A stretch of DNA of 64,000 nt from contig JACPLU010000003.1 of the NCBI GenBank assembly GCA_016186395.1, positions 11,883 to 75,882 of the forward strand, given 5' to 3'. A model generated the notes under the pieces. It was not told the origin of the DNA. It made no database searches and saw only the letters and a program-made list of their open reading frames with translations. The position numbers were made by a program, and so were the translations under genes. Positions 377-62,743 of the stretch are shown here, in pieces; position 1 is the first letter of the stretch, and every line of letters starts with the position of its first letter. This DNA comes from Parcubacteria group bacterium (GTDB lineage Bacteria; Patescibacteriota; Minisyncoccia; 2-02-FULL-40-12).

Positions 377-1000
377 TGTCTCCTCCTTGAAGTAAAGAAC
401 GCGTTTGTTGAAATAGCAGTATATACTATGGTAGCATATACTTTTGTTTTTGTCAATTGAATCTAAAAATGTAGGCGGGATTTGTCTCATACTTAAGACC
501 CGAAGCCGGGTGAGCTACCCATGGCCAGGATGAAGTTCCGCGAAAGCGGAATGGAGGTCCGAACCCACGCATGGCGCAATATGCGGGGATGAGCTGTGGG
601 TCGGAGTGAAAAGCTTATCGAACCCGGTAATAGCTGGTTCTCTCCGAAATGCCTTTAGGGGCAGCGTCGGATTATGTTAAGTTGGGGGTAGAGCACTGAT
701 TGGATTTCCGTGCCCTTATGGGTAGGTTTTCCAGCCAAACTCCGAATACCAATTTAATTACTCCGGCAGTGAGACTACGGGGGCGAAGCTCCGTGGTCGC
801 GACGGGAACAGCCGTGATCTCAAGTTAAGGTCCCTAAATTAAGGTTAAGTGTGAAAGGTAGTGAAGACGCTCAAACAACCAGGAGGTTTGCTTAGAAGCA
901 GCCATCCTTTAAAGAGTGCGTAACAGCTCACTGGTCGAGCTTTTTTGCGCCTAAGATGTAACGGGGCTAAAACCTTATACCGAAACTGAGGGTTATCTGT

Positions 1001-1108
1001 GGCTCATCGATGCGTCTAAGGTCAAATGACTAAGGACTAAAGCTGAAAGGTTTAATTTTTGGCTTTAGACTTTAGACTCTAGACTTTAGTCGTGACGATG
1101 AGTCACGG
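1001..1108. repeat. 108-bp hairpin element, copy 1, inserted at the 23S helix-45 IVS hotspot
   Basis: Differs from 2087-2194 by a single nucleotide. Imperfect hairpin: gactaaggactaaagc ... gctttagactttagactctagactttagtc. Flanked by ggctcatcgatg / cgatgagtcacgg. Confidence 0.8.
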
Positions 1109-4148: not shown

Positions 4149-4621
4149 GCGAGCTGGGTTCAGACCGTTAAGAATCTGAATCATAAATCATGAAACTTGA
4201 AACATCTTGTTTCGGTTTGATTTGGTTTTTTAACAGTCTGAATCCGAGGATATTCAAAAGACATCATTTAACGGCGGCACTATATAGGAATATATAGTGT
4301 GAAGTTGACCATATCGGTGAAATCCCATTGGGATAACACCTAGGGAAGTTTGTAAACTTTATTGAAGTTCTTTTTTGGGAGGTGTAGCTCAAGAGTATTG
4401 TATGATGAAAGGCGAAAGTCGGGGACTCATACAGTAGCGAGAGCACTGGACTCTGGATCCAGAGGTTGCAGGTAAAAATCCTATCACCACCCACCAATTT
4501 TTGAGTAATCAATATTTGGCACTTCAATAAAGTTTACAAATCCCGTAGAGACTATACGTCAGCCACCCTAATTGAGCTTAGCTCAGCGGGTGAAGATATA
4601 GTCCAGTGCATACAGCAATGT
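4149..4621 (+). mobile_element. ORF-less group I intron in 23S at the I-CreI/I-CeuI-type site (around E. coli 2593)
   Basis: Exon gggttcagaccgt | intron | cgtgagacaggttggtcc matches E. coli GGGUUUAGAACGU|CGUGAGACAGUUCGGUCC. Core strands agactatacgtc and gaagatatagtcc are present and the intron ends in G. The only ORF in it (4264-4527, minus strand) looks spurious. Confidence 0.7.
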
Positions 4622-6782: not shown

Positions 6783-6791
6783 CCCTGAAGC

Positions 6792-7919
6792 ATGAAACAT
6801 GAGTCGTGCATCAAAAGGTTTAAAGATGTTTCATGTTTCATGTTTCATGATTTGAGAAAATTAGATTGGTGGCTTTTGACCCCTGTACTCGCTTTATTTT
6901 TAGCGAGTCTTTTAAACTTATACGGCATCGGAGGTTTTGATTCTTTCTTTATAAAACAACTTATTTTTGTATTAGTCGGTCTTGTTCTGTTATTATTTTT
7001 TGTTAGTATTGATTTTAGAATCTTTAGGGAATCAAGTATATTACCATCATTACTTTATGTTGCGTCTCTAATATTTTTATTCGGCACTCTATACTCTTCA
7101 GAAGTTCGCGGTATTAAAGCCTGGTTTTTTATAGGATCTTTTGGGTTTGAACCATCTGAAATTACAAAGTTAGCTTTAATATTATTTCTAGCTAAGTTTT
7201 TTTCGAGTAACGGCGGGCAAAGAACTAACCAACCCTTCTCATTGGGGATATCTTTGATATATACCCTAATTCCTATTGGCTTCATACTTTTACAACCAGA
7301 TTTTGGTTCGGCAGCAGTTTTAGGCGCTATATGGCTAAGTGCGTTAATGAATTTTAAAATCAAAAAGACACATATGCTATTTTCGACAGGTGTTTTGGTG
7401 TTGCTTGGTATTGTGATTTGGATTTTTATGCTCGCGCCGTATCAAAAAGCTAGATTTACTGCTTTTTTAGATCCGTTGGAAGATCCGCGCGGTTCCGGTT
7501 TTCAGAATCTTCAAGCTCAAATTTCAGTTGGTTCCGGAAACTGGTTGGGTTACGGTGTACAAAATGCTACTCAAGTTAAACTTGGTTATTTGTCAGAGCC
7601 AAGAAATGATTTTGCATTTGCGGCCTTTGCCCAACAGTTTGGTTTTTTAGGTACTTCTTTGGTCGTAATTTTGTATGGTTTATTTTTATATAGACTGTCC
7701 TCCATAGGGATATTTACAAAAGACCGATTTGTTCATATATTTGTTTTTGGATTTTTAATTTTTATTTCTACTCATTTAATTATTAATATTGGAATGAATA
7801 TCGGCGTTTTGCCTGTCACAGGAATTCCACTATCCTTTTTTAGTTATGGTGGGAGTCATCTATTAACTTTGATGTCTGGGCTTGGCATTGTTCAAAGTAT
7901 AAAGGTTCATACTTCTTAA
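6792..7919 (+). CDS. SEDS-family peptidoglycan glycosyltransferase (FtsW/RodA)
   Basis: Ten-TM SEDS architecture, with ...DFAFAAFAQQFGFLGTSLV... matching the FtsW/RodA conserved block. An alternative in-frame start at 6840 (MFHDLRKLDWW) lies inside a heptamer repeat array. Confidence 0.85.
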   Translation: MKHESCIKRFKDVSCFMFHDLRKLDWWLLTPVLALFLASLLNLYGIGGFDSFFIKQLIFVLVGLVLLLFFVSIDFRIFRESSILPSLLYVASLIFLFGTLYSSEVRGIKAWFFIGSFGFEPSEITKLALILFLAKFFSSNGGQRTNQPFSLGISLIYTLIPIGFILLQPDFGSAAVLGAIWLSALMNFKIKKTHMLFSTGVLVLLGIVIWIFMLAPYQKARFTAFLDPLEDPRGSGFQNLQAQISVGSGNWLGYGVQNATQVKLGYLSEPRNDFAFAAFAQQFGFLGTSLVVILYGLFLYRLSSIGIFTKDRFVHIFVFGFLIFISTHLIINIGMNIGVLPVTGIPLSFFSYGGSHLLTLMSGLGIVQSIKVHTS

Positions 7920-7929
7920 CTGGGGTTAT

Positions 7930-7976
7930 GTTCGGGCGATCATACGTCCAGGGCGTATGATCGCCCGAACATTTTG
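7930..7976 (+). terminator. Hairpin terminator after ftsW/rodA
   Basis: gttcgggcgatcatacg tccaggg cgtatgatcgcccgaac is a 17-bp perfect stem, followed by attttg. Confidence 0.6.
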
Positions 7977-11533: not shown

Positions 11534-11605
11534 GTCGCTAGCCACTAGAAACTAGCCACTAGGAGTTTTTAATCTAGTCGTTAGTCATTAGTCGTTAGTC
11601 ATTAG
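11534..11605. repeat. CTAG/TAG-rich tandem repeats immediately 3' of rpoB
   Basis: gctagccactagaaactagccactagg, followed by tagtcgttagtcat x2. TAG occurs in all three forward frames. Related to the repeat at 23338-23415. Confidence 0.7.
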
Positions 11606-14600
11606 TTGGACTTTAGCTCAATTCGTGTAAAACTTGCTTCGCCAGAAGATATCTTAAACTGGTCACATGGAGAGGTAACAAAGCCGGAAACCATAAACTA
11701 TAGGACTCAAAGACCAGAGCCCGAGGGTTTGTTTTCGGAAAAGATTTTCGGTCCACAAAAAGACTGGGAATGTTATTGCGGTAAATATAGGAGAATAAGG
11801 TATAAGGGAATTATTTGTGATCGTTGCGGGGTAGAGGTTACTCGTTCTATAGTTCGACGTGAAAGAATGGGACATATTAGTTTGGCGGCTCCAGTCGCTC
11901 ATATTTGGTTTTTGCGCGGAGTACCAAGCAGAATGGCGATGTTGCTTGATTCATCTTTACCGGAATTGGAAAAAGTAATTTATTTTGCGGCCTATATAGT
12001 TACCAGAGTTAATGAAGAAGCTAAAACAGAAGCAATGAAAAAACTTGAGAGTGAGTTTCGTTCGGCAATGGCTATCTTAAAGAAGAAAGGGAATGACGAA
12101 AAGGAATTAGAAAAATTGAGAGCAATTAAAGAGCGTGAACGGCTTCTGCTTAGAAATATTCAAAAATATCAGATTCTTTCAGAAGTTGACTATCGAGAGC
12201 TTTCGTTGAAATATGCGGAAGTTTTTGAGGCCGGGATTGGTGCTGAAGCGGTGAAAAAATTGCTTTCAGAAATTGACTTGAATAGTTTGGCAATAGATGT
12301 CGAAAATAAACTTACTTCGGTTGATAACCCATTCTTGCAAAAGAAGATAGTAAGGAGATTAAAGTTGCTTAAAGGATTGGCGAAAGCCGGTATTAGGCCA
12401 GAATGGATGTTTCTTGATGTCATTCCGGTTATTCCACCTGATCTTAGACCAATGGTTCAGTTAGATGGTGGTCGTTTTGCCACATCGGACCTGAACGATC
12501 TTTATCGAAGAGTAATAAATCGGAATAACCGGTTAAAACACCTTATTGAATTAAGAGCGCCAGAAGTCATAACCAGAAACGAGAAAAGAATGTTGCAAGA
12601 AGCAGTAGACTCTTTAATAGATAATGCAATGAGAAGGGGACAGACAATTACCACTTCACAAGCTGGCCAGCGAAGAGCATTAAGGTCTTTGGCCGATATG
12701 TTAAAGGGAAAACAAGGAAGATTTAGACAGAACCTTTTAGGTAAAAGGGTTGATTATTCTGGACGTAGTGTAATCGTTATCGGACCAGAGTTGAATTTTG
12801 ACCAATGTGGTTTGCCAAAACACATGGCATTGGAACTTTTTAAACCTTTTGTAATTCAGAAATTAAAGGAAAGGGGAATAATTCATAACATTCCTGGAGC
12901 AAGACGACTTATTGAACAGGAAAGCCCCGAAGTTTGGGAAGCGTTAGAGGAGGCTATAAAAGATAAATTAGTTCTTCTTAATCGAGCTCCAACTTTACAT
13001 AGATTGGGAATTCAGGCTTTTCGTCCTATTCTTCACGAAGGTAAGGCGATCAGAATTCCGGCCATGCCAACTCATGCTTTTAACGCTGACTTTGACGGTG
13101 ACCAAATGGCTGTTCATTTGCCCTTAACCAAAGAGGCACAGGAGGAAGCCAAAAATTTGATGCTTTCTTCTAAGGGAATTCTAAAACCGGCCACTGGTCG
13201 TCCCATTGCTACGCCGACTAAAGATATTGCTTTTGGGATTTATTATTTAACTCTTGGAATTGACGGATTAATTGGTGAGGGGAAGGTTTTCGGTTCTCCG
13301 GGGGAAGCATTGATGGCATATGATAACAAATGTATTGAACTCCATTCTAAAATAAAAGTACGTTTTAATTCAAATTTAGAGACGGCAACTGACGAGAATA
13401 TAAAAAGTGAATTGGTTTTAACTACTGTTGGGAGGATTTTATTTAGTAAGATTTTACCAAGCGGAATGGCATATGTAAATCAAGCTTTAAACAAGTCTGA
13501 TCTTGAAAAAATAGAAGCAACAATTTTAGAGAAGTATGGAGAAACAATGGCAGCGGATTTTTTGAACAACGTTAAAGATCTTGGTTTCTTTTTCGCAACC
13601 GTTTCCGGTATATCGTGGTCTATGGATGATCTTCGTATTCCGGAGGAAAAACATCAAATTGTTGCTAAAGCTGATGAGTTGATTGAAAAAAATCACGAAC
13701 TTTATGAGCAAGGTCTTTTAACGGATCTTGAGCGAAAAATTAAAGCTATCGAAATATGGAATGACGTTAAGTCTGAAATTGGGAAATCAGTTAAAAAGGC
13801 TTTAAGATCTGATGATCCGGTTAAGATTATAGTAGATTCAAAGGCTCGAGGAAGTTGGGATACGGTTAACCAGCTTATGGGTATTAGAGGTTTATTTGCT
13901 AATCCAGCCGGAGAAATTATTGAACTGCCCGTGAAAAATTCTTTCAAAGAGGGCTTAAACGTTTTGGAATATTTTATTTCTACTCATGGTGCCCGAAAAG
14001 GATTAGCCGATACAGCCTTGCGTACGGCTACAGCAGGCTATCTTACTCGTAGATTAGTTGACGTAGCTCAAGATATCGTTGTTAGGGAGGAAGATTGTAA
14101 AGACAGCGAGGGCTATGATATTTATCGTGAAGATGGTAACTATACTGGAGAAACTTTGGGTGGCAGGGTTAGAGGAAGATTTGCCGCAGAAACAATAAAA
14201 TCAGATACAGGCGAAATTATAGCTAAGAAAGGAGAGTTAATAGATAAGGCTAAGGGTGACAAGATGGATTTAGCAAAGCTTAACCAAGTTCGGGTTCGTT
14301 CGGTTATAACTTGTAAGTCAAGAATTGGTTTGTGTCAGACTTGCTATGGTTATGATTTGGGTAGAAATAAAATTGTAGAACTCGGAGAATCGGTAGGAAT
14401 AGTAACGGCTCAAGCTATTGGAGAACCAGGCACCCAGCTTACTATGAGAACATTCCATACCGGTGGAGTTGCCGCATCTGGAGATATTACGTTGGGTTTG
14501 CCCCGTGTTGAGGAAATTTTTGAAGCCCGTATTCCCAGGTCACCAGGTGTAATTTCTGACGTTGACGGCAGGGTGGTCTCTATAGAAGAAAAGGGAAAGC

Positions 14601-18404: not shown

Positions 18405-18478
18405 TTCAATTTAAATATGACTTTGCATAGTTTTATTTTTTATAGAATATTGTAATATGATTATAATGAAGACCAGAA

Positions 18479-18502
18479 TCCATCCATCCATCCATCCATC
18501 CT
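18479..18502. repeat. (CCAT)n microsatellite
   Basis: ccatccatccatccatccatcc, between ftsK and the DGR RT. Confidence 0.9.
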
Positions 18503-18535
18503 AAGTTTTAGAAGAACTTTTATTTAGTTTATTTA

Positions 18536-18557
18536 GACCGCAATTAGCGGTTTTTTG
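18536..18557 (+). terminator. Weak hairpin plus T6 terminator after ftsK
   Basis: accgc aatta gcggt tttttt. Confidence 0.45.
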
Positions 18558-18568
18558 TTTCGTTTGTT

Positions 18569-19651: not shown

Positions 19652-19977
19652 TATTTATAAAATCCTACGATTTATACAAGCTATTTTATAGTTTCCGTAC
19701 CCTGGTTCCCAAAAATGACCGCTACACAATCTGGCAAAGGTGCGAAAATTTAATGCTGGATATAATCGATGGAATTCTATATGCCAGCCAAATTTCAAAA
19801 ATTGAGAAACTCCCGATTCTTGAAAAAACAAGCATGAAGTTAAGTCTCCTGCGTGTTTTTGTTCGGCTTATGAAAGATACCAAAGCGATAGATAATAAGA
19901 AATACGTATCACTCGAAACCATTATCGACGAAATTGGCCGTCAGCTTGGAGGCTGGATAAAATCAACTAAAGGATAA
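19630..19977 (+). CDS. avd: DGR accessory variability determinant (Avd-like four-helix-bundle protein)
   Basis: 115 aa. The C-terminus IDEIGRQLGGWIKSTKG resembles Bordetella phage Avd IAEVGRILGSWIARVNRKG, and the N-terminal region VPKNDRYTIWQRCEN resembles IPRKHGVAREMFLKC. Transcribed divergently from the RT. Confidence 0.65.
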   Translation: MNEFDTPIFIKSYDLYKLFYSFRTLVPKNDRYTIWQRCENLMLDIIDGILYASQISKIEKLPILEKTSMKLSLLRVFVRLMKDTKAIDNKKYVSLETIIDEIGRQLGGWIKSTKG

Positions 19978-20023
19978 CAGAATACCCGCCAACTGGCGGG
20001 TATTCTTAATGAGGAGCGACTTC

Positions 20024-20148
20024 GAAAGGAACCCAGACGCGGAGCCATAGTTGTCGTTCGGGTTGCTTACGTCGTTCGTGTTGAACTTGACCTTGTCGTC
20101 GTTGAAGTTGAAGTACGGCGCGCTGCTGAACCTGCCATCAGCGTCTGG
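20024..20148 (-). repeat. DGR template repeat (TR)
   Basis: 125 bp homologous to 20620-20744. All 15 mismatches are T on plus (A on the coding/minus strand) in this copy. The translated frame is Asn-rich (NFNDDKVKFNTNDVSNPNDNY), typical of AAC-rich TRs. The 70-aa ORF 19963-20175 is therefore not a gene. Confidence 0.85.
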
Positions 20149-20613
20149 AAATTGCTTTTGCCCATCTATAGTCACCGGATATCGAGGCTTGCCACCTTAA
20201 CGGTCTATATCCTCTCAATCCTGAATTTTATTCGGGAGCATCTCGCAAAAGAATCTCCGCTGGGCGGAAGCAAGCAGTAGTCTCCTCAATTTGGCACTCT
20301 CGGAGAATCCGTGAACGCTCCGACTCTGGCCGTTTGATCTCTTTTTTGAAGAGAGAGTTCGGTGACGGCAATCCGAGAGCGATTCTAGTCGGGCTAAAGC
20401 GCCGACTAAGAAACTTCGCCCAGATAAACTGCCGTTCATTAACCTAAGCTCACAGGAAGTATACAAATAATCCAATTAAAAGTGAATATATAAAAAGAAA
20501 AAGAGGGCCACCCACGATGGAACTGTGGATAACCCTCTCAAAAATTTCGCCGAACTCAAGGATCAAGAAACAACGAATCAAAAGATCCAAGTGTTCGAGC
20601 GATCAAGGCCCTA

Positions 20614-21471
20614 CTACTGCGAAAGGAACCCAGACGCGGAGCCAAAGCTGTCGTCCGGGTCGCTCACGCCGTACGCGTTGAACTTGACCCTGACGTCGTC
20701 GAAGAGGAAGTACGGCGCGCTGCCGAACCTGCCATCAGCGCCTGGACTGTACTCATCGCCTGGGCAGTCGATGTGCAACTGTTCCCATTGAATGAGCCGT
20801 TCCGGATGAGACAGAAGCATGCAGTCGACGATGAACGAGCCGAGCCCGAACTCGTGAGGAGCATAGACCACGCGCATCCTTCGCACGGACCGACCCCGAT
20901 GGGTCAGGCCGAACTGGGCTGGGATCAGTAGAAAGTCGCCCTTCTGCTTTTCGCCGATCATCTGGAGCGCGACGGCTGTCCGTTCGGAGAGCCGCAGGTA
21001 TTTCGGGCCGAGCGCGCCTTTGCGGTAGTTGTGGAAGGTGCGGGTCTTTCCGATCAGGTCGAGAACCTTCTCGACAGCCTCGTTGTACGAGGACGCAACC
21101 TTCTCCCACCGCGGAACGGCGAACCAGCCTTCCGCGCCAGCGGGCAGAGCCGGAAGCTCCTTGGAGCAGGCCAGCACCGAACTGGTGTTGAGACCGTTGA
21201 AGTGCTTGGAGAGCTCCACGAGCTGTTCGCAGACCGGCTTCACGGCGTACCCTTGCGGATAGCCGTAGTTGGACTTCACCTCTTCGTTGGCGAAGAACGG
21301 ACTCGCCGTGACGAGAGGTGCCGAGGTCACTTCCTTCTCCTCGACGATGGACTGCAGGTTCCTGGCGACGAAACTCGGCTCGAGCGTCCCTTCCATGAGG
21401 CGGCGCTGGACTTCCCACATGCGGCGGGAAATCGTTCCGAGAGTGTCGTCTGCGACGATGTGAGTCGTCAT
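20614..21471 (-). CDS. DGR target (variable) protein, 285 aa, with a C-terminal VR-encoded ligand-binding region
   Basis: Good RBS aaggagg upstream of the start. The C-terminal 40 aa (...PGADGRFGSAPYFLFDDVRVKFNAYGVSDPDDSFGSASGFLSQ) is paralogous to the TR translation. About 58% GC, unlike the surrounding sequence. No signal peptide was detected. Confidence 0.8.
   Translation of the reverse strand: MTTHIVADDTLGTISRRMWEVQRRLMEGTLEPSFVARNLQSIVEEKEVTSAPLVTASPFFANEEVKSNYGYPQGYAVKPVCEQLVELSKHFNGLNTSSVLACSKELPALPAGAEGWFAVPRWEKVASSYNEAVEKVLDLIGKTRTFHNYRKGALGPKYLRLSERTAVALQMIGEKQKGDFLLIPAQFGLTHRGRSVRRMRVVYAPHEFGLGSFIVDCMLLSHPERLIQWEQLHIDCPGDEYSPGADGRFGSAPYFLFDDVRVKFNAYGVSDPDDSFGSASGFLSQ
20620..20744 (-). 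repeat. DGR variable repeat (VR) at the 3' end of the target gene
   Basis: Matches the TR except at template-adenine positions. It ends 4 nt from the target stop codon. The GC-rich 3' end ctccgcgtctgggttcctttc is conserved between TR and VR (IMH-like). Confidence 0.85.
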
Positions 21472-23337: not shown

Positions 23338-23415
23338 GCGACTAGTGCCTAGCGCGACTAGTGCCTAGTAATTAAAAATGTTCTTTACTAGTTTCTAGTG
23401 GCTAGTGGCCAGTTT
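23338..23415. repeat. CTAG-rich tandem repeats immediately 3' of ssb, in the gene's orientation
   Basis: gcgactagtgcctag x2, then ctagtttctagtggctagtggccagtttctag. The reverse complement contains ctagaaactggccactagccactagaaactag, which is related to the rpoB-distal repeat. Confidence 0.7.
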
Positions 23416-23920: not shown

Positions 23921-23980
23921 ACTAAAGTCAAAAGACTAGGGACTAAAGTTTTGGTCTTTAGACGCTAGACATTAGACTTA
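23921..23980. repeat. Stop-rich hairpin element (gactaaag family) between ssb and rpsF
   Basis: gactaaagtcaaaagactagggactaaagttttggtctttagacgctagacattagac. Confidence 0.6.
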
Positions 23981-30602: not shown

Positions 30603-30851
30603 AATTAAAAAGTTAAAAATTAAAACTCAAAATTACAAATGAAAAATCAAAAGTTATTTTTCTTATATTTATTATAGTATTTTCTGGGATAATTTACATT
30701 TGACAGAATTGTTTATTCTTTTTCGACAATGTGGAAGCGTGGCGGCTTGGTGTCGGGCTAAAAGCCTGACCGCCGCGCTGGAACGTTAGCGAGCATATCG
30801 CTGGAATATGCGAGCGTGTCGGAAAAGTATAAACGATTCTGGAAGTTAAAG

Positions 30852-32792
30852 TTATACCTCAATTATAACAGGAAGTACCATTGGTCTTCGTTGGGTTTTT
30901 TGGAAAAGGTGCTGACCAATTTTTTCTCTGATTTCTTCTTTGAGGTATGCCCAGTTAATCGGACCGCCGCGCATAGTTTTTTGTTCGATTATGGCACGAA
31001 CTTTTTTTCTAACCTCGTTTAACATGTCTACATTGTCTCTAAGATACACAAATCCACGAGAGATAATATCGGGGCTGGTTCTAATTTTTCCAGATCGGCC
31101 ATCAACCAAAGTTACAATAACAAACATGCCATCTTCAGAAAGCATTTGTCGATCGCGTAAGACGACTGACCCAACGTCACCAATTCCGAGGCCGTCCACC
31201 ATGATGTAGTTGGAGGGAGCAGTTTTTTTATCAATCCACCATTGATCAGGGGACAGATGAATAATTTGACCGTTGTCGGCAATGATAATGTTTTCTTCAG
31301 GAATACCTTGAGCTGTACCTAGTTGCCCTAAAGTGACCATCATTGAATATTGGCCATGGTGGGGCATGAGGAATTTTGGCCTTATTAATTTGATGATTTC
31401 AATTAAGTCATCTTGGTGTGCATGGCCACCAGCATGGATGTCCATCATTTGGTAGTGATAGACTCGAACACCACCTCGGTAGAGCATATCTTTCAGGTAT
31501 TGAACCGAGCGTTCGTTACCCGGAATGACTGAAGAGGAGAAGATAACTGTGTCGCCTTTTTGAACTTGAATACGGCGATGTTCACGGTTGACTATACGCA
31601 TCAGAGAAGCTTCTTCTTGGCCCATGGCGCCGGTTGCGATGACGGTTAAGCGATTGCGTGGGTAGTTGTTGATTTGGTCTTTGGATATCTCGGTGCCTTT
31701 GCCGATTTTAATATAGCCCATTTCTTTGGCAATTTCGATATTGGTTTTAACCGAGTAACCGTCAAACAGGACTTTGCGTTCGTATTTTTCGGAAAGCTGA
31801 ACTAACTGTTGCATACGATTAATCATTGAAGAGAATGTGCCAACAATGATAAGACCGGTGGCTTCTTTGAAAATAATTTCCATGTTTTCGTAGATGGTTT
31901 GTTCTGAAATGGAATGACCAGTTTTTTCCGCACTGGTTGAGTCACACATCAACATGTGGATGCCGCGGTCGCCAAAAGCACGGAGTTTGTCAAAGTCAAC
32001 CGGAACATCATTGAGTGGTGTCGGATCAAATTTGAAATCGGCCGTGTGTACAATGTTGCCTACGGGAGTTTCGATGAATACACCCAGGTCATCCGGGATA
32101 TTATGATTCATGTGGAAGAATTCCACTTTGAAATAGTCTCTCATTTGAACAATATCCCCATCTTTCACGACGTGGATTGGAAGTTTTGGGAGATGCGGAA
32201 ATTCGCTATGGCGTTTTAGAACGAAATTTTTAGTCAAAAGAGCAGTATAAATATCGGGATTGCCGAGTTTTTCTTGAAGATAGGGTATAGCTCCAATGTG
32301 GTCTAAGTGTCCGTGAGTTAGGATAAGACCACGGATATTTTTAATTCGGTCTTGCAAATAGCCGGTATTAGGAATAACAAAATCAATACCTGGCATATCT
32401 TCACCTGGGAACATGACCCCGGCATCAATAAGTATAATGTCGTCTTTATATTCGAGCATATACATGTTCTTGCCGATTTCCCCCAAGCCGCCAAGAGCAA
32501 TTACTTTGAGTGTGTTATCACTGTTGATCAGAGCTTGTCCGGAACTGGTCGAGGGGCCAAACTTGCCGGCTTGTATGCTAGTAGGAGGTAGGCGACGCTG
32601 GCTAGCAGGTTGTGATCGGTGTTGGTGGAATCGATTGCGCATTGTGCGCACGGTTTTCTTAGCCTGTGGAGCGGTGGTGGTTTCGGGTGTGCGAGAGCTT
32701 GGGTTGATAGGGGTGCGAGTGTCGCGACGTATGGGTCGCTGGCTGCGGGAACGGTTAAAGTTCGCCCGCGGAACTTTTGTAAATGGTGACAC
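30852..32792 (-). CDS. rnj: Ribonuclease J (beta-CASP metallo-beta-lactamase), with an Arg/Pro/Ser/Thr-rich N-terminal extension of about 100 aa
   Basis: HGHLDHIGA and beta-CASP motifs. The N-terminal extension is encoded by GC-rich DNA (about 32500-32792). Confidence 0.9.
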   Translation of the reverse strand: MSPFTKVPRANFNRSRSQRPIRRDTRTPINPSSRTPETTTAPQAKKTVRTMRNRFHQHRSQPASQRRLPPTSIQAGKFGPSTSSGQALINSDNTLKVIALGGLGEIGKNMYMLEYKDDIILIDAGVMFPGEDMPGIDFVIPNTGYLQDRIKNIRGLILTHGHLDHIGAIPYLQEKLGNPDIYTALLTKNFVLKRHSEFPHLPKLPIHVVKDGDIVQMRDYFKVEFFHMNHNIPDDLGVFIETPVGNIVHTADFKFDPTPLNDVPVDFDKLRAFGDRGIHMLMCDSTSAEKTGHSISEQTIYENMEIIFKEATGLIIVGTFSSMINRMQQLVQLSEKYERKVLFDGYSVKTNIEIAKEMGYIKIGKGTEISKDQINNYPRNRLTVIATGAMGQEEASLMRIVNREHRRIQVQKGDTVIFSSSVIPGNERSVQYLKDMLYRGGVRVYHYQMMDIHAGGHAHQDDLIEIIKLIRPKFLMPHHGQYSMMVTLGQLGTAQGIPEENIIIADNGQIIHLSPDQWWIDKKTAPSNYIMVDGLGIGDVGSVVLRDRQMLSEDGMFVIVTLVDGRSGKIRTSPDIISRGFVYLRDNVDMLNEVRKKVRAIIEQKTMRGGPINWAYLKEEIREKIGQHLFQKTQRRPMVLPVIIEV

Positions 32793-32880
32793 TTAATAAA
32801 AATCAAAAATCAAAAGGCAAAAGTCAAAAGTATGAATAAAGATCTTTTGATTTTTTGAAGTTTTTAGAGAAATTACTTAA

Positions 32881-32962
32881 TGCCGATGGTGGGATTTGAA
32901 CCCACAAGCCTTACGGCACATACTTCTGAAGTATGCATGTTTGCCAGTTTCATCACATCGGC
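32881..32962 (-). tRNA. tRNA-Leu (anticodon CAG)
   Basis: Cloverleaf: acceptor GCCGATG/CATCGGC, anticodon stem CATAC/GTATG with loop TTCAGAA, long variable arm GCCGTAAGGC, T-arm GTGGG TTCAAAT CCCAC. No encoded CCA. Confidence 0.8.
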
Positions 32963-33179: not shown

Positions 33180-34184
33180 CTAAGCTGTTAATTTTTCTAA
33201 ATCTTTAAATCTATCCAAAAGTTCGTTATTACTCGGATCTTGTTTAGAGTTGATTGCCATAAAGTAACTGGTCCATATCGCAAGAGTATAATTAGTAAAA
33301 ATTTTCTGAATCACATTATCTCCTTCTAGGGTAATAACTTGATGGTTTATACTAAGATCGCTAAGTATTTTAACGGCGACATCTAATTTTTTTATTTGTT
33401 TTGGGTTCTCTTGGGGATCAGATAATAATATCGAATAAAAGTTTTTACTAGATTCAAATCCAACAATTTCGTTATGAGCAATACTTGGAAAGTGGTTCCA
33501 AAAAGAATGAGCCTTCGCGTTTTCATTGAAATTTATCTTCCATAATAGAGGCAGTGCCCGCCATTTATAAGAAGAATAAATGATTGGGGTAAGATTATTA
33601 ATTTGATTGGCTATATTTTTACCGGTTATCTCTAACTCTTCGGGTTTCAGTGTATTTTTAAGATCCAAGAGTTGCTTTAAAATGTTATTTTCTGGAAATT
33701 TAAGTATAGCAGAATCATTCAAGAAGGTCAATAGGGCAGAAAACATATAAGCGGTTCCAATCCGTGGCGGTATATTTTCCTGGGGTAGCAGTATAAAACC
33801 GAGAGAATTTTGAGCCAATTCTCTTAACTTTCCTCCTTTTGTTATAACAACTGTTTGAATGCCTTTTTCTATGGCAGATTTGTATGAGGAAATAGTTTCA
33901 TCGGTATTGCCGGACCAAGAAACACATATTACAAGATCATTTTTTGAGACCCAACTTGGCAGTTCGTAGTCGCGATGAATATAAAAATTATAATTCGGGG
34001 TTTGAGTAACTTCACAAAGAGTCATTAGGATTTCTGCGGGCATCATTGATCCACCCATTCCGCAAAGAACGATTTTATCAAATTTTTTTTGATCGAACTT
34101 AACACTTTTGGCAGATTCACTTCCTGTTTGAAATTGTTCCGGGATATTTAAAATTGTTTGGCGGAAGTCCGAATCGTGAATCAT
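33180..34184 (-). CDS. Bifunctional phosphoglucose/phosphomannose isomerase (SIS domain, archaeal-type PGI/PMI)
   Basis: CGMGGSMMPAEI SIS motif and about 330 aa size. Confidence 0.7.
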   Translation of the reverse strand: MIHDSDFRQTILNIPEQFQTGSESAKSVKFDQKKFDKIVLCGMGGSMMPAEILMTLCEVTQTPNYNFYIHRDYELPSWVSKNDLVICVSWSGNTDETISSYKSAIEKGIQTVVITKGGKLRELAQNSLGFILLPQENIPPRIGTAYMFSALLTFLNDSAILKFPENNILKQLLDLKNTLKPEELEITGKNIANQINNLTPIIYSSYKWRALPLLWKINFNENAKAHSFWNHFPSIAHNEIVGFESSKNFYSILLSDPQENPKQIKKLDVAVKILSDLSINHQVITLEGDNVIQKIFTNYTLAIWTSYFMAINSKQDPSNNELLDRFKDLEKLTA

Positions 34185-34262
34185 GAATCATGAAACATGA
34201 AACCTAAATCATGAAACATGAAACATCGTAATGTTCCATATTTCATGTTCAATGTTCCATGG
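34185..34262. repeat. (C)ATGAAAC heptamer tandem array abutting the PGI start codon
   Basis: gaatcatgaatcatgaaacatgaaacctaaatcatgaaacatgaaacatcg, plus inverted copies ttccatatttcatgttcaatgttccatgg. Confidence 0.7.
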
Positions 34263-44288: not shown

Positions 44289-44335
44289 AAACTATGAAAC
44301 TTGAAACATGAAACTTGAAACATTTTGCGCTTCAC
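44289..44335. repeat. ATGAAAC-type heptamer repeats abutting the uvrB start codon
   Basis: aaactatgaaacttgaaacatgaaacttgaaacatt, directly 5' of the uvrB ATG on the minus strand. Confidence 0.7.
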
Positions 44336-44365
44336 GTTTTAGGTTTCGCATGTTAGTCTTAAATC

Positions 44366-47941: not shown

Positions 47942-49243
47942 ATGTTTAAAGAGATTAGAATAGTTGAGAATATGTTAAGGTTTATTAGAGGTTTAATTCC
48001 GCGACGGGTATTTAGGTTTTTTCAACCTTGGTATCACGGCACTCTTTCTTTACTAGGATCATACTTTTATGGCCAGCCATCAAAAAAAATAAAGGTTATT
48101 GGGGTTACTGGCACTAAAGGAAAATCAACCACTGTTTTTTTAATATCTAAACTTTTAGGTGAAGCTGGTAAATCCGTAGCAGCCATCGGTTCCTTGGGTT
48201 ATAGAATTAAAGATAGGCAATGGCCTAATGAATTAAAAATGACTATGCCAGGGAGATGGAAACTACAAAAGTTTTTATATGAGGCGGTAAAAGAAAAGTG
48301 TGAATATGTGGTACTTGAAGTTACTTCTGAAGGATTGGCTCAAAATAGACATTGGGGCGTTAAATTTGACTGTGCGGTATTTACGAATTTATCCAAGGAA
48401 CATCTTGAAAGCCATGGCTCATTTAGCAAATATTATCAAGCTAAACAAAGATTATTTGAAAAAACGAAAAATATACACGTTCTAAATGCAGACGATTCAC
48501 ATATTGAGCTTTTCTCAAAATTTGAATCCAGTAAAAAGATCTTTTATGGCATAAATCATGGGGATATGAAAGCTGTAGATACCAATGTTTTATCAGATAG
48601 AGTTGAATTTGAAATATATGGTACGAAGTTCAATATCAATTTGGGGGGTGAATTTAATATTTATAATTGTTTAGCCGCTCTATCCTGTGTAGCAATGTAT
48701 GGGATGGATTTACCACAGAGTAAAGCAATTCTCGAAAAAGTAACAAACATTTCAGGCCGCATGGAATTTGTGCACAAAAATCCAGACGTGATTGTTGATT
48801 ATGCCCATACTCCGGATTCGTTGGAGAAAGTTTATAAAACCTTTCGGGAGGATACAAGATTCAAGATTCAAGGTTCAAGACTAATTTGTGTACTCGGTGC
48901 GGCTGGCGGGGGACGCGATAAATGGAAAAGGCCGGAATTCGGGAAAATTGCTGAAAAATATTGTGACGAAATTATCCTTACTAACGAAGACCCTTTTGAT
49001 GAAGATCCTTATCAGATTTTATCTGAAATAAAATCCGGAATTTTAACTCCCAGAATTCAAAGTTCAAATTTTTACGAAATCCTTGACCGTAAAGAGGCAA
49101 TTAAACAGGCCTTGACCTTAGCTGGAGAAAATGATACTGTTATTATTACAGGTAAAGGATCAGAGACTTCTATTGCTGTTTCAAATGGCAAGAAAGTCCC
49201 CTGGTCTGACAAGAAGATTATTTTAGAACTTTTAAAAAAATAG
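47942..49243 (+). CDS. murE: Mur ligase family protein, MurE-like
   Basis: VIGVTGTKGKSTT P-loop and the DYAHTPDSLEKV motif, which is characteristic of MurE. Confidence 0.7.
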   Translation: MFKEIRIVENMLRFIRGLIPRRVFRFFQPWYHGTLSLLGSYFYGQPSKKIKVIGVTGTKGKSTTVFLISKLLGEAGKSVAAIGSLGYRIKDRQWPNELKMTMPGRWKLQKFLYEAVKEKCEYVVLEVTSEGLAQNRHWGVKFDCAVFTNLSKEHLESHGSFSKYYQAKQRLFEKTKNIHVLNADDSHIELFSKFESSKKIFYGINHGDMKAVDTNVLSDRVEFEIYGTKFNINLGGEFNIYNCLAALSCVAMYGMDLPQSKAILEKVTNISGRMEFVHKNPDVIVDYAHTPDSLEKVYKTFREDTRFKIQGSRLICVLGAAGGGRDKWKRPEFGKIAEKYCDEIILTNEDPFDEDPYQILSEIKSGILTPRIQSSNFYEILDRKEAIKQALTLAGENDTVIITGKGSETSIAVSNGKKVPWSDKKIILELLKK

Positions 49244-52127: not shown

Positions 52128-52139
52128 AAATAATATTTA

Positions 52140-52206
52140 ACGTCTAATGTCTTAAGACTAAGGTCTATAATCATAAAGAAGCTTTAGACATTAGCCTTTG
52201 GTCTTT
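52140..52206. repeat. Stop-rich hairpin element (variant of the gactaaag family)
   Basis: cgtctaatgtcttaagactaaggtct...ctttagacattagcctttggtctttagtc. Confidence 0.55.
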
Positions 52207-53574
52207 AGTCAAAGAATGCGAATTACCTTTTACGGTGGAGCAAAGCTTGTTACAGGAGCAAATTATTTGTTGGAAGACAAAGATTTTCTTGCTCTTGTTG
52301 ACTGTGGTTTATTCCAAGGTTCTCGTTTTTGTGAGGACTTAAATTACGAACCATTTCCTTATGAGCCCAAAAATATTAAATATGTTTTTATAACTCATAG
52401 TCATATTGATCATACCGGAAGGTTGCCAAAACTTTATAAAGAAGGTTTTAGGGGTAAAGTTTTTTCTACTAGACCCATCCGGGATATTTTAGAACACGCT
52501 TTGCCTGACAGCCTTAATCATCTTAAAAGAGAAGCAGAGGAACAAAATCGGGAACCTATTTATAGTTTTGAAGATGTTGGTTCTGTTATAAAATTGTTTG
52601 AAACTTTTGATTATGATCAAAAAACTGATTTGGGCAATGGAAAATATTTTATACTGCATGACGCCGGACATATATTGGGTTCTAGTATTATTGAATTTGG
52701 CTGGTCTGGCGGACGGATTTTATTTTCTGGTGATTTAGGTAATCCACCGACACCATTACTTAGGCCGACTGAATACATTGAGGGGGTGGATTACGTTGTA
52801 GTTGAATCTGCCTATGGCAATAGAATTCATGAAAATAGAGACGAGAGAAAGGAGATACTAAAAACAACTATCGAAGAAACTATAAAAAGAGGTGGTGTAT
52901 TAATGATTCCTTCTTTTGCAATGGAACGTACTCAAGAGCTTTTGTTTGAACTAAATGAGATGGTGGAGAATAAAAGAATTCCTTTTATCCCAATTTTTAT
53001 AGACAGTCCATTAGCTATCAAATTAACTGAAGTTTATAAAAAACACGAAGCATATTTTAACAAAGAAGCATCCTATTTGATAGATAGTGGTGATGATATA
53101 TTCAAATTTCCGGGACTCTATTTTACATCTTCGGTTGAAGAATCAAAGTCAATAAATGAGGTAAATTCTCCAAAGATTATTATTGCCGGTTCTGGTATGA
53201 GTCAGGGTGGAAGAATTTTACATCATGAAAGGCGATATTTGTCGGATCCTAACAGTACAATTTTATTTGTTGGCTATCAGGCTAAAGGAAGCTTGGGAAG
53301 AAAAATCTTGGATGGGGAAAAAGAAGTTAAAATATTTGGAGAGAGCATACTAATTAAGTGTAAAATAAAGGCTATTGGCGGCTATTCTGCTCATGCCGAT
53401 CAACCGGGTCTTGTACGTTGGGTTAAAAAGGCTTCTATTGGTGAAAAGCTAAAAAAAGTTTTTATTGTACAAGGAGAAGAAATAGCTATGGAAGCGTTGA
53501 GCGAAAAATTGAAGGATGAAATTAGCGGTCTAGAAACTGTTATACCTAGCATTGGGGACGATTTTGATTTATAG
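52198..53574 (+). CDS. beta-CASP family metallo-beta-lactamase ribonuclease (CPSF/RNase J-like), second copy in window
   Basis: HSHIDHTGRLP MBL motif and beta-CASP region, about 450 aa. Confidence 0.8.
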   Translation: MVFSQRMRITFYGGAKLVTGANYLLEDKDFLALVDCGLFQGSRFCEDLNYEPFPYEPKNIKYVFITHSHIDHTGRLPKLYKEGFRGKVFSTRPIRDILEHALPDSLNHLKREAEEQNREPIYSFEDVGSVIKLFETFDYDQKTDLGNGKYFILHDAGHILGSSIIEFGWSGGRILFSGDLGNPPTPLLRPTEYIEGVDYVVVESAYGNRIHENRDERKEILKTTIEETIKRGGVLMIPSFAMERTQELLFELNEMVENKRIPFIPIFIDSPLAIKLTEVYKKHEAYFNKEASYLIDSGDDIFKFPGLYFTSSVEESKSINEVNSPKIIIAGSGMSQGGRILHHERRYLSDPNSTILFVGYQAKGSLGRKILDGEKEVKIFGESILIKCKIKAIGGYSAHADQPGLVRWVKKASIGEKLKKVFIVQGEEIAMEALSEKLKDEISGLETVIPSIGDDFDL

Positions 53575-53613
53575 TATATAGAAATGGGCATGAACTTCGT
53601 TAAAAGACTCGGG

Positions 53614-53700
53614 TCTAGCGTCTAAGGACTAAAGTCTAAAGACTAACGGCTAACGCCAATACCTTTCAGCTTTAGTCCTTAGACATTAAGCTACACATGA
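53614..53700. repeat. Stop-rich hairpin element (CGTCTAAGGACTAAAG family)
   Basis: gcgtctaaggactaaagtctaaagactaacggctaacg...ctttagtccttagacattaagctacacatga. TAA occurs in all three frames. Confidence 0.75.
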
Positions 53701-62667: not shown

Positions 62668-62743
62668 TGGTCTAACGTCTAAGGACTAAAGCCGAAAAGT
62701 ACTGGCGCTAGTTGTTAGTCCTTAGACGTTAAGCTACACATGA
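62668..62743. repeat. Stop-rich hairpin element (CGTCTAAGGACTAAAG family)
   Basis: acgtctaaggactaaagccgaaaagtactggcgctagttgttagtccttagacgttaagctacacatga. Confidence 0.75.

Follow-up and report, generated by a model that had tools for sequence, protein, structure and literature searches.

Heptanucleotide repeat arrays and their predicted stem-loops in a Parcubacteria genome

The spacer between an SBP_bac_5 gene and the gene for PGI/PMI in a Parcubacteria genome carries a tandem array of the heptamer (C)ATGAAAC that runs into the start codon of the latter gene. An initial annotation had listed the same kind of array at ftsW/rodA, at uvrB and inside a group I intron. What are these repeats: binding sites for a regulator, elements of translational control, small mobile sequences, or something more general? 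We studied 64 kb of the source genome (the window) and about 25 kb of close relatives, which share 87-94% protein identity; any genome-wide statement is an extrapolation from this material.

Heptamer arrays in the window

Tandem arrays of period seven are in clear excess: the window holds 11 of them, against 0.05 in shuffled sequences, and seven is the sole enriched period (the other periods between 4 and 12 give zero or one array each). All four (C)ATGAAAC arrays, here family F1, are present where the initial annotation had placed them, and they are nonrandom: (ATGAAAC)2, with at most two mismatches, has 14 matches against 1.1 expected, all except one (26443) at the four F1 sites. TRF reports F1 arrays of period seven at 6826-6849, 34177-34226, 34231-34261 and 44289-44323. 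Counting both strands, ATGAAAC itself occurs 27 times, against 14.1 +/- 3.6 in dinucleotide shuffles; 11 of these occurrences lie inside the four F1 arrays, and the remaining 16 are scattered at background level.

The architecture is not, as had been thought, a property of ATGAAAC. At least three other unit families (GWCTAAR, CTAGYSR and AAAAGTC/AAAATCA) build it at 11 further sites or more, including stop-proximal ones and rRNA (Table 1), single ATGAAAC heptamers occur at chance frequency, and the unit is not conserved at orthologous spacers. The core of family F2 is found 14 times against 0.7 expected. In general the arrays are short, with two to five imperfect units, and within the 64-kb window they are noncoding or lie in rRNA or an intron, with a single exception at 48851-48880. 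Their density is 172 per Mb in the window, 150-318 per Mb in the closest Parcubacteria loci and 29.5 per Mb in other uvrB loci (2.3 Mb covered).

Table 1. Heptamer arrays and hairpins in the 64-kb window, with the evidence for each.
Feature	Position	Strand	Evidence
F1 hairpin filling 79-nt SBP_bac_5 to PGI/PMI spacer	34171..34262	-	TRF period-7 rows, inverted arms, folding; identical in 3 Logan assemblies
F1 hairpin filling 57-nt spacer from conserved hypothetical gene to ftsW/rodA	6786..6852	+	TRF, inverted arms, folding
F1 hairpin, 77-nt divergent uvrB/ruvA spacer	44289..44345	.	TRF, (ATGAAAC)2 matches, folding
F1 hairpin, 5' end of second 23S group I intron	4167..4234	+	inverted arms, folding
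F2 (GTCTAAG/CTTTAGA) hairpin, 110 nt, 23S rRNA terminal loop	999..1108	+	Rfam LSU alignment, folding
Second 110-nt F2 hairpin, other 23S rRNA loop	2085..2194	+	99% identical to first copy
CTAGCCA / TAGTCRT pair filling 72-nt rpoB-rpoC spacer	11538..11606	+	TRF; sense -22.3 vs -17.5
CTAGTGC / CTAGTGG arrays, directly 3' of ssb stop (23416)	23338..23413	-	TRF
F2-type hairpin filling 64-nt rpsF-ssb spacer	23925..23980	-	
GATTTTT/GAGTTTT-type array adjoining trpS start codon (30602)	30603..30660	-	TRF
F4 (AAAAGTC/AAAATCA : GACTTTT/TGATTTT) hairpin, tRNA-Leu to RNase J ORF start	32795..32880	-	TRF
F2 hairpin filling 88-nt spacer before beta-CASP/RNase J-like gene (ATG 52216)	52139..52210	+	
F2 hairpin, 38 nt past beta-CASP gene stop, about 145 nt before next start	53612..53692	+	
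F2 hairpin, 371-nt spacer after class II aaRS (tRNA-synt_2) gene	62668..62736	+	17-nt arms 100% complementary
F4-type hairpin with 46-nt arms, overlapping D-Ala-D-Ala carboxypeptidase gene stop codon	63841..63937	+	
(GATTCAA)n array, 30 nt, in frame in Mur ligase C-domain (DTRFKIQGSR); sole coding case	48851..48880	+	

An assembly artefact could be ruled out: through five arrays the window agrees at 99.99-100% identity with three independent Logan assemblies, and the arrays at ftsW and uvrB are found in relatives as well. Logan contigs from this strain do break at F2 and F3 arrays, at 11538..11606 (rpoB-rpoC) and just upstream of 62668..62736.

The same comparison bears on phase variation, in which changes in repeat number would switch the downstream genes. 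Simple repeats beside start codons are the classical architecture of such contingency loci, and the heptamer repeat of hmw in H. influenzae offers a precedent (PMC12721329). We nevertheless reject this reading as extremely improbable: the repeat units are not perfect copies, the arrays stand before housekeeping genes (ftsW, pgi, uvrB, rpoC, trpS), and the variation in copy number that the initial annotation suggested looking for is absent, both among the three assemblies of the strain and at ftsW and uvrB, where relatives have the same unit count despite 15-22% synonymous divergence.

No other long simple repeats are as over-represented in prokaryotes as heptamers, an excess attributed to polymerase slippage (Mrazek et al. 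2007; PMC4679880, PMC4692102). In this literature, the LSSR/STRR repeats are tandem 7-nt units of a strongly over-represented period, intergenic, present at many loci with several units per genome, and lineage-specific (Mazel 1990; Mrazek, Guo and Shah 2007; PMC4692102, PMC4679880). The 64 kb studied here likewise contain head-to-tail 7-nt units beyond chance, an excess of period seven and mostly intergenic positions. The present arrays differ from the repeats so described in their few imperfect units, in being almost always paired with an inverted array and in their CPR/Parcubacteria host; a limited literature search turned up no publication about heptamer or tandem repeats in Patescibacteria. 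The best reading of the ATGAAAC arrays is that they are a lineage-specific form of this known bacterial repeat and not a new regulatory system.

Predicted stem-loops at gene junctions and start codons

The arrays are normally paired with an inverted array, always with the A-rich arm at the 5' side and the T-rich arm at the 3' side, giving a stem-loop of 20-45 bp. The ftsW copy had been singled out as an inverted pair; it is one, but so are all four F1 copies, each consisting of an (ATGAAAC)-like arm and then a (GTTTCAT)-like one over the extent given in Table 1. An automated search over 160 loci flagged inverted partners for 10 of 73 arrays with a threshold that is too strict for imperfect arms. 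It showed the same A-rich-first polarity in L092, L116 and L159.

Predicted folding energies of the heptamer hairpins range from -17 to -53 kcal/mol (z -2 to -10), and folding is significant in all F1 copies (z -2 to -5). The strand matters. For the PGI/PMI hairpin the sense (minus-strand) RNA reaches -34.1 kcal/mol (z -5.0) and the antisense -23.9, for ftsW the values are -27.1 (z -5.0) and -21.1, and for the intron copy -19.5 (z -3.1) and -12.2 (z -0.9). The sense strand is thus better in every oriented F1 case, by 10.2, 6.0 and 7.3 kcal/mol, with more G-U pairs; the divergent uvrB/ruvA hairpin gives -17.2 in the uvrB sense and -16.4 in the ruvA sense. The hairpin at 999..1108 in the rRNA has -53.0 kcal/mol (z -10.2) against -33.6. 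Over 14 oriented cases, sense folds better in nine, antisense in three, and two are equal.

With A/U-rich stems and, in most cases, no U-tract behind them, the hairpins are not canonical intrinsic terminators. Only the PGI hairpin gave a match in a terminator scan of three F1 regions, and a weak one (4 G-C in 17 pairs; tail ATTTAGGTTT). Typical terminators do occur elsewhere in the window, for instance at 7929-7971. The heptamer hairpins match no family in Rfam 15, where only LSU rRNA, 5S rRNA and a tRNA reach the gathering score in the window; matches to group I introns adjoin the hairpins but do not lie on them.

The preference for gene junctions is real: seven of the 11 intergenic hairpins occupy the complete stop-to-start spacer of 57-88 nt (P ~0.003), and spacers above 200 nt hold 79% of the intergenic bases. 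It is because the hairpins fill the entire junction that arrays touch start codons, coming within a few nucleotides of the start of ftsW, pgi, uvrB, rpoC, trpS, rnj, the beta-CASP gene and ssb. The contact with start codons described in the initial annotation holds for the three genes it named (ruvA, on the other side, is about 20 nt away) but does not extend to the rRNA copies or to four intergenic hairpins that are stop-proximal or distant from any start (53612, 62668, 63841, 23338).

That the arrays supply ATGs was also borne out. Seven is coprime to three, so successive CATG units give an ATG in all three frames, and at PGI/PMI no start other than the array-derived ATG is usable. This start (34184) lies within the degenerate end of the array, in a spacer of 79 nt counted from the SBP_bac_5 stop at 34264, and the degenerate last F1 units encode the ATG and the first four to five codons. 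A relative begins with ATG-GAT-TTC where the window has TCG-GAC-TTC. The uvrB start (44288, minus strand) is 3 nt past the array and that of ruvA (44366, plus strand) about 20 nt past the other arm, while the rpoC start (TTG, 11606) is the end of the CTAGCCA / TAGTCRT array. For ftsW/rodA the true start is most likely ATG 6840 and not ATG 6792, because the closest homologue has 359 aa and a relative has GTG at 6792. ATG 6840 lies in the 3' arm, (ATGTTTC)3ATG, and gives a protein that begins MFHDLRKLDWW.

The initial annotation had a hairpin at ftsW holding the start codon, and the predicted fold does put 6840 in the stem. One reading is a control in which the hairpin would sequester the start until it is opened by the ribosome terminating upstream (translational coupling) or by cleavage. 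The ftsW geometry suits it, with the upstream stop at 6780-6782, the stem from 6786 and the start codon paired with the base of the 5' arm, and so do the unchanged 3' arm with its start codon in a relative and the lack of a Shine-Dalgarno sequence in most genes of the window. As an account of the hairpins in general we find it quite unlikely: the start codon is outside the main stem at PGI/PMI and uvrB, several hairpins are stop-proximal or distant from any start (the four listed above) or lie in rRNA, and the conservation of the 3' arm (17 of 17 bases) is not significant (P = 0.06).

Could the arrays instead be sites for a DNA- or RNA-binding protein, held in a 7-nt register? Heptad repeats are bound by ToxR and H-NS (TTTTGAT in the ctx promoter) and UAG-N4 repeats by HutP. 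The regular 7-nt spacing agrees with such a role, several arrays read UAG-N4 (TAGTCGT TAGTCAT..., TAGACTT TAGACTC...), one F1 array lies in the divergent promoter region of two DNA-repair genes, and partners have been postulated for the arrays of Nostoc and Beggiatoaceae (bioRxiv 10.1101/2022.06.06.494920; PMC4679880). The regulator-binding array of the initial annotation is nonetheless very improbable. The architecture is common to four or more unrelated unit sequences, it recurs inside rRNA and an intron, the units drift almost neutrally and differ between orthologous spacers, and the window ORFs scanned against Pfam include no candidate regulator or binding protein. A HutP- or TRAP-like reading of the UAG-N4 arrays was dropped, as no protein supports it and F1 has no UAG.

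The closest parallels in position are the TAACTGA arrays near starts in Beggiatoaceae (MacGregor 2015, PMC4679880) and the GACYAAT/TTTTGAA arrays of Nostoc PCC 7120, which overlap start codons (bioRxiv 10.1101/2022.06.06.494920). Like the arrays studied here they sit on the start codons of unrelated, often housekeeping genes or a few nucleotides away, with canonical Shine-Dalgarno sequences rare in the vicinity. However, they are direct repeats of one dominant unit (BOGUAY has 169 direct sets and one indirect), whereas here start-proximity goes together with several units in at least four families, a rule of inverted pairing, and further copies at stop codons, in rRNA and in an intron.

Conservation and dispersal

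The ftsW and uvrB/ruvA hairpins have kept their position, length and unit count across some 15-22% of synonymous divergence. In L167 and L168 (94% amino acid identity) the ftsW hairpin is kept and folds at -24.9 vs -18.0. Its 5' arm is identical at 18 of 28 positions, a faster change than at synonymous sites (P ~0.006). The whole spacer, with 81% identity vs 85%, evolves at about the synonymous rate. Three of the four substitutions in the 18-bp stem relative to L167 are exchanges between A-U and G-U, with pairing kept only on the sense strand. The uvrB/ruvA hairpin has the same length in L161 (93% amino acid identity), where the spacer is 81% identical against 77-79% at third codon positions. 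Taking three pairwise comparisons together, five changed base pairs are still paired on the sense strand and seven are broken, so structural conservation is weak.

At the SBP-PGI junction, L165 and L166 have an unrelated 101-nt hairpin of -42.1 kcal/mol (z -6.0), against -33.5 on the antisense. The RNase J leader hairpin is about 96% identical to that of L165, compared with 72% at third codon positions (P ~2e-13). At an orthologous spacer the unit sequence is not conserved in L081, and L001 and L002 have no array there. Further, upstream of its SBP gene one relative has an F1 array where the window has none.

Much of this would be expected of a neutral or selfish by-product, in which slippage of period seven and template switching create functionless arrays and their inverted copies, which persist only where they are harmless (spacers, loops of rRNA and intron). 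The near-synonymous divergence of the uvrB/ruvA and ftsW spacers fits, as do the complete replacement of the PGI spacer in a relative and the changed or missing arrays in L081, L001 and L002; the excess of period seven is general across unrelated bacteria, and a mutational cause has been proposed for it (PMC4692102, PMC4679880). We regard such an origin without function as possible but doubtful. Against it stand the strong constraint on the RNase J leader hairpin, the sense-strand folding bias, the preference for tight operon junctions, where insertions should cost most, over long spacers, and the fact that the relative has a hairpin, although an unrelated one, at the same SBP-PGI junction.

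The hairpin at 999..1108 is an insertion after position 1218 of the Rfam LSU model, within a hairpin loop that we take to be in the helix-45 region, the classical site of intervening sequences. Such sequences are known from Salmonella, Campylobacter, Leptospira and Coxiella, where they sit in 23S rRNA helices 25 and 45. As in these, an extended stem-loop of about 110 nt replaces the tip of the helix-45 region; unlike them, it has a 99% identical second copy in the loop of a different helix, and its heptamer family is shared with mRNA spacers. The two 110-nt copies have imperfect terminal inverted repeats. Some 45 nt separate the second copy from the first (L1917-type) group I intron, which lies downstream. 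The F1 array at 4170-4215 is at the extreme 5' end of the second group I intron, which is near an L2593-type site; the core of this intron is at 4255-4625 (Rfam RF00028, E 6.8e-9, below the gathering score), and the 23S exon resumes at about 4630 (4633).

Such copies could belong to non-autonomous elements of REPIN or MITE type, copied by an enzyme supplied in trans (a RAYT/IS200-type Y1 transposase, for example) or via an RNA intermediate, and preferring gene junctions and hairpin loops as targets. In addition to the rRNA pair, the F2 copies at 53619 and 62676 have exact 16-nt arms in common, the F1 copies at 4170 and 34171 have the same order of variant units (GAATC-/GAATCAT/AAATCAT or GAATCAT/GAAAC), arrays are present or absent between relatives, and assemblies break at the repeats. 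REP/BIME sequences and REPINs are also dispersed intergenic palindromes in inverted pairs, with transcript hairpins between genes of one operon and some near-identical copies (Bertels and Rainey 2011, PMC3116915). Dispersed intergenic inverted hairpin pairs are found here too; as to near-identical copies, F2 has one 99% identical pair and the shared 16-nt arms, and the F1 copies vary in the length of their arms and in their units. In contrast to REP and REPIN sequences there is no fixed consensus of 20-35 nt, the arms are heptamer-periodic, and no RAYT (Y1) or other transposase is present among the window ORFs scanned against Pfam.

Mobility of this kind is unlikely in our view. F1 has no target-site duplications or fixed termini; a multiple alignment of its four copies has no common termini and only the repeat unit is shared, and neither the length of the arms nor the make-up of units is the same from copy to copy, which is what growth in place would give. 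Further, the two ancestral arrays, at ftsW and uvrB, have stayed where they were. An F1 24-mer has matches in four large-virus contigs, but these are plain direct arrays without hairpins and thus unrelated; the F2 16-mer has no match in viral contigs. A bolder version, which we find quite unlikely, would make the hairpins miniature mobile elements of CPR bacteria, copied, possibly via an RNA or ssDNA hairpin, into stop-start junctions and loops of structured RNAs, with the CATG family as a three-frame portable start codon. If true, a gene's native initiation site could be replaced without killing the gene.

An RNA-level reading and its meaning

A mechanistic precedent for processing and expression control by a heptamer hairpin is hmw of H. 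influenzae, where (ATCTTTC)n forms a 5'-UTR hairpin that is cut by RNase III (PMC12721329). In both systems one side of a long RNA hairpin, placed shortly before a coding region, is made of a heptamer repeat. The hmw hairpin has a G-rich non-repeat sequence as its right arm, its units are perfect and at least ten, and the gene is a phase-variable adhesin (PMC12721329), whereas here both arms are repeats of few units at housekeeping genes. The present hairpins are likewise predicted to be long and stable, but no variation in repeat number is seen among the three assemblies or in the ftsW and uvrB relatives. The 64-kb window encodes no RNase III (rnc) gene.

We think it fairly probable that the arrays are transcribed stem-loops of heptanucleotide repeats that act at the RNA level, a type with counterparts in cyanobacteria, Beggiatoaceae, Xanthomonas and Haemophilus hmw. 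F1 is one family within a class of imperfect heptanucleotide arrays that is unusually dense in this genome and its close relatives, and whose transcripts could fold into A/U-rich stem-loops of 20-45 bp. They occupy sites that tolerate an additional RNA stem-loop, namely stop-to-start junctions of operons, 5' leaders and 3' ends of genes, terminal loops of 23S rRNA and the periphery of a group I intron, and at PGI/PMI an array-borne ATG has become the start codon. Both arms may have arisen by replication slippage with a period-7 bias together with template switching or copy-paste, and families would disperse and turn over at a higher rate than the genes beside them. Placed between cistrons or in leaders, the stem-loops might set mRNA processing and stability, since long duplexes would be substrates for RNase III-type enzymes and hairpins at 5' or 3' ends could block exonucleases; they would also modulate access to adjacent start codons. 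Constraint appears to be graded, strong at the RNase J leader and almost absent at uvrB/ruvA.

A role at the RNA level is suggested by the folding bias, the G-U exchanges in ftsW, the replacement hairpin at the SBP-PGI junction and the conserved RNase J leader. Turnover and dispersal are what the rRNA pair, the replaced PGI spacer, the F1 difference upstream of the SBP gene, the fast 5' arm of ftsW and the contig breaks point to. On the other side, the uvrB/ruvA and ftsW spacers diverge near the synonymous rate, base pairs are weakly conserved and for some hairpins the antisense strand gives the better fold. This RNA-level reading has no account of why the A-rich arm strictly comes first.

In practice, the arrays mislead gene callers, and the gene models of uvrB, pgi and ftsW homologues extend through the repeats and are 16-28 codons too long; short-read assemblies of CPR genomes also break at the arrays. 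Bacteria have a long-standing, unexplained excess of 7-nt repeats, to which the finding adds a new phylum and a hairpin architecture. Orthologous junctions with a retained, a replaced and a constrained hairpin make a compact system for studying slippage versus selection. As for the organism itself, its CPR genome is streamlined and the spacers are very short, yet it keeps repeat-built stem-loops of 60-110 nt at operon junctions, in the leaders of both RNase J-type genes and in rRNA. Should these serve as signals for processing or stability, they would form a main post-transcriptional layer in organisms that largely lack Shine-Dalgarno sites.

Heptamer arrays and their hairpin design

The window derives from a metagenome-assembled genome of the Parcubacteria (candidate phyla radiation) and has a G+C of about 37%. 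It opens with a 23S rRNA gene into which three group I introns are inserted, two with LAGLIDADG ORFs, followed by a 5S rRNA gene. The genes around the arrays that are confirmed by Pfam are FtsW/RodA, RpoB, RpoC, SSB, TrpRS, RNase J, SIS/PGI, SBP_bac_5, UvrB and RuvA. A reverse transcriptase ORF adjoins a bAvd-like ORF, with an (ATCC)6 repeat and a G+C-rich ORF (0.51) with a strong Shine-Dalgarno site nearby; the region 18478-21471 looks like a diversity-generating retroelement cassette.

The window has 27 copies of ATGAAAC, compared with 14.1 +/- 3.6 in dinucleotide shuffles. Eleven of these copies lie within four arrays, while the other 16 are dispersed at background frequency. The dimer (ATGAAAC)2, with at most two mismatches, is found 14 times against 1.1 expected and is essentially confined to the four sites. 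Every array listed in the initial annotation was recovered where it had been placed. Tandem Repeats Finder also calls the arrays as period-7. By sliding autocorrelation the window contains 11 arrays of period 7 (0.05 in composition-preserving shuffles), and 0 or 1 for each other period from 4 to 12. This corresponds to 172 arrays per Mb; the closest Parcubacteria loci (L001, L002 and L081) have 150-318 per Mb and the uvrB loci of other bacteria 29.5 per Mb over 2.3 Mb, period 7 being the commonest there as well.

The inverted pair that had been pointed out at ftsW is indeed inverted, but it is not peculiar to that gene: a GTTTCAT-type array, the inverted copy, lies 3' of the ATGAAAC array at all four sites. 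Nor is the design specific to ATGAAAC, as other heptamers build the same combination of array and inverted copy (see table). Only one heptamer array of the window is coding. In all heptamer hairpins the 5' arm is A-rich and the 3' arm T-rich, and the same polarity is seen in unrelated loci (L092:2255-2373, L116:7318-7461, L159:2366-2398). The order of the arms is identical on both strands and is therefore not explained by gene orientation or replication strand.

Heptamer hairpins and other features of the window, with minimum free energies (kcal/mol) of the two strands folded as RNA
Feature	Position	Strand	Sense	Antisense
23S rRNA region with introns	393-5650
Group I introns	~2236-3210, ~4165-4630, ~4660-5436
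LAGLIDADG ORFs in introns	2705-3160, 4847-5320
ATGAAAC, group I intron copy	4170-4215		-19.5	-12.2
ATGAAAC, ftsW/rodA	6795-6862		-27.1	-21.1
ATGAAAC, PGI/PMI	34185-34262		-34.1	-23.9
ATGAAAC, uvrB/ruvA (divergent copy)	44289-44335		-17.2 (uvrB sense)	-16.4 (ruvA sense)
GTCTAAG/GACTAAA with CTTTAGA/CTTTAGT	999-1108, 2085-2194, 23925-23980, 52139-52210, 53612-53692, 62668-62736		-53.0 (rRNA insertion 999-1108)	-33.6 (rRNA insertion 999-1108)
CTAGCCA/TAGTCRT and CTAGTGC/CTAGTGG	11538-11606, 23338-23413
AAAAGTC/AAAATCA with GACTTTT/TGATTTT	30603-30660, 32795-32880, 63841-63937
(GATTCAA)n, 30 nt, in frame in Mur ligase C-terminal domain (DTRFKIQGSR)	48851-48880
RNase J leader, probably regulatory	32700-32880	minus
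Insertion that looks MITE-like	8000-8105
Inverted arms of this insertion, 19 nt	8002-8020, 8085-8103
(ATCC)6 repeat	18478-18501
Reverse transcriptase ORF (PF00078)	18569-19651	minus
bAvd-like ORF (PF22296)	19630-19977	plus
G+C-rich ORF	20614-21471
tRNA-Leu(CAG)	32881-32962
Direct copies of ~45-nt segment	32963-33130	minus

One 110-nt hairpin of the GTCTAAG family is present twice in the 23S rRNA gene, with 99% identity, in the loops of two different helices. One copy is inserted at position 1218 of the Rfam model, in a hairpin loop that we take to be the helix-45 region, the classical site of intervening sequences; the other occupies another loop, about 45 nt upstream of the first intron. It is unusual for one insertion to be present in two rRNA helices. 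Further, exact 16-nt arms are common to other copies of the family, and two Logan contigs of the strain stop exactly at hairpins of the GWCTAAR/CTAG type (L169 at ~62492, L171 at ~11600), which suggests that these families exist in multiple copies throughout the genome and disrupt short-read assembly. The rRNA pair, the shared arms and the contig ends fit a dispersed repeat family. Such a family could consist of REPIN-like mobile elements; no transposase or RAYT gene is found in the window, and we consider this origin unlikely.

Gene junctions and start codons

After correction of start codons, spacers of the window have a median length of 88 nt. At seven junctions (hypothetical-ftsW, rpoB-rpoC, rpsF-ssb, tRNA-rnj, SBP-pgi, uvrB-ruvA and SPP-betaCASP, where rnj is RNase J and SBP the SBP_bac_5 gene) a single hairpin occupies the whole spacer of 57-88 nt, and must therefore border on the stop codon or the start codon, if not on both. 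Spacers of more than 200 nt hold 79% of the intergenic bases but only 4 of the 11 intergenic hairpins (binomial P ~0.003, or ~0.0007 once the hairpins' own length is removed), so the preference for tight gene junctions is real and goes beyond trivial genome compaction. The proposed preference for start sites is thus upheld as a preference for tight junctions, but not strictly for start codons: the hairpins at 23338, 53612, 62668 and 63841 lie at or near stop codons, at least 96 nt from the next start.

The longest ftsW ORF begins at ATG 6792, within the 5' arm. However, the nearest FtsW homologue (94% identity) has 359 residues, begins MFHVLRKLDWW and carries GTG at the 6792 position, while other homologues have 347-371 residues; because of these lengths and the GTG, the start is most likely ATG 6840 within the 3' arm, (ATGTTTC)3ATG. 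This probable start is base-paired in the predicted fold, in line with the suggestion that a hairpin sequesters it. PGI/PMI has to start at ATGATTCACGATTCG, two degenerate array units, since its frame is closed by a stop codon upstream of 34184. Where the relative reads ATG-GAT-TTC the window has TCG-GAC-TTC, and together with the stop this means that the array provides both the start codon and the initial four to five codons.

Since 7 shares no factor with 3, a run of CATG units would offer an ATG in all three frames, which accounts for the extra in-frame and out-of-frame ATGs described initially. This may be the reason why a CATG-bearing array can lie at a start site and leave the gene intact. 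Such repeat-borne ATGs mislead gene callers: UvrB, PGI and FtsW homologues are overextended by 16-28 codons, and the relatives' UvrB and PGI are annotated at 687 and 362 residues instead of 668 and 334. As to other start signals, few genes have a recognisable Shine-Dalgarno sequence: AGGAG/GGAGG-like sites occur at only about five of the upstream regions of about 40 genes.

Comparison with relatives and RNA folding

Relatives with 87-94% protein identity (L161 and L165-L168) were reached through the protein database. The uvrB-ruvA hairpin is kept in the relative (75 vs 77 nt), with 81% identity in the spacer, compared with 77-79% at third codon positions, and a folding energy of -16.7 kcal/mol on the uvrB sense strand. 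The ftsW spacer has the same length (57 nt) and an unchanged 3' arm, while only 18 of 28 positions of the 5' arm are identical, a faster change than at synonymous sites (85%; P ~0.006); this looks like unit reshuffling, and the fold is retained (-24.9 kcal/mol). The SBP-PGI spacer is replaced by an unrelated 101-nt sequence without ATGAAAC that itself forms a strong sense-biased hairpin (-42.1 vs -33.5 kcal/mol, z -6.0), and GTTTCAT, of which the window keeps a single unit upstream of the SBP start, forms an array of three units there in the relative. In the ruvA-uvrB spacer, the more distant L081 (70% identity) has a hairpin of other heptamers (AATTTAC/AATTGAA), and L001 and L002 have no heptamer hairpin. 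Downstream of the ftsW terminator there is an insertion of ~105 nt that the 94%-identity relative (L167/L168) lacks; it is not heptamer-based and resembles a small MITE.

At the other extreme, the AAAAGTC hairpin of the RNase J leader and its flanks are ~96% identical, against 72% at third codon positions (P ~2e-13). The conserved stretch also covers the GTG annotated as start and extends ~60 nt into the ORF, where there is a second small hairpin (AAAGTTCCGCGGGCGAACTTT). A conserved regulatory leader is the probable reading, with the true start codon perhaps further downstream. A ~45-nt segment (ATGGCGGAACCCCRCACCAGAGCAAAGYTCGGTRCGGGGCAGG...) in two direct copies contains the 5' part of tRNA-Leu from the relative L165 and differs from the window's own tRNA-Leu; the copies may be what is left of a tRNA gene that was replaced or rearranged.

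Copy-number variation, which the initial annotation had proposed to look for, was not seen: five arrays show no length variation among three assemblies of the same strain, and the uvrB-ruvA hairpin has an equal number of units in the relative. Taken as a whole, the comparisons show that heptamer hairpins are gained, lost and remodelled at a higher pace than the genes, that they are not hypermutable, and that constraint on them ranges from strong to nearly none. A purely neutral reading of the repeats is rather unlikely.

Among 14 oriented hairpins, the sense strand folds better than the antisense strand in nine, equally in two and worse in three, and has more G-U pairs. The 18-bp ftsW stem differs from that of the relative by four substitutions, three of which exchange A-U and G-U and so leave the pair intact only in the sense RNA. 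Summed over three comparisons, five changed pairs are still paired and seven are broken; structural conservation of the predicted stems is thus suggestive but not proven.

Relation to known heptanucleotide repeats

The nearest descriptive precedents are TAACTGA arrays close to starts in Beggiatoaceae (PMC4679880), start codons overlapped by heptamer arrays in Nostoc (bioRxiv 10.1101/2022.06.06.494920), GGGAATC arrays, some of them inverted, in Xanthomonas (PMC4692102), and the overall excess of heptamers that Mrazek and colleagues reported, as described in papers citing it (PMC4692102, PMC4679880). Mechanistically, the nearest is the (ATCTTTC)n hairpin in the 5'-UTR of H. influenzae hmw, which is cut by RNase III with altered expression (PMC12721329). 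A limited literature search found no paper on heptamer or tandem repeats in Patescibacteria.

The initial annotation saw the arrays as a regulatory binding array, a translational control element or a micro-mobile repeat preferring start sites; the observation is confirmed and the interpretation partly supported. The best-supported reading is that the ATGAAAC arrays are a local sample of bacterial heptanucleotide repeats in a lineage-specific variant that forms hairpins; the variant is what is new, the repeats as such being already known. Slippage biased to period 7 together with template switching would generate the repeats, and the RNA stem-loops would then be tolerated or selected at operon junctions, in leaders and in RNA loops. 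From the predicted folds we infer that the heptamer hairpins may function at the RNA level.
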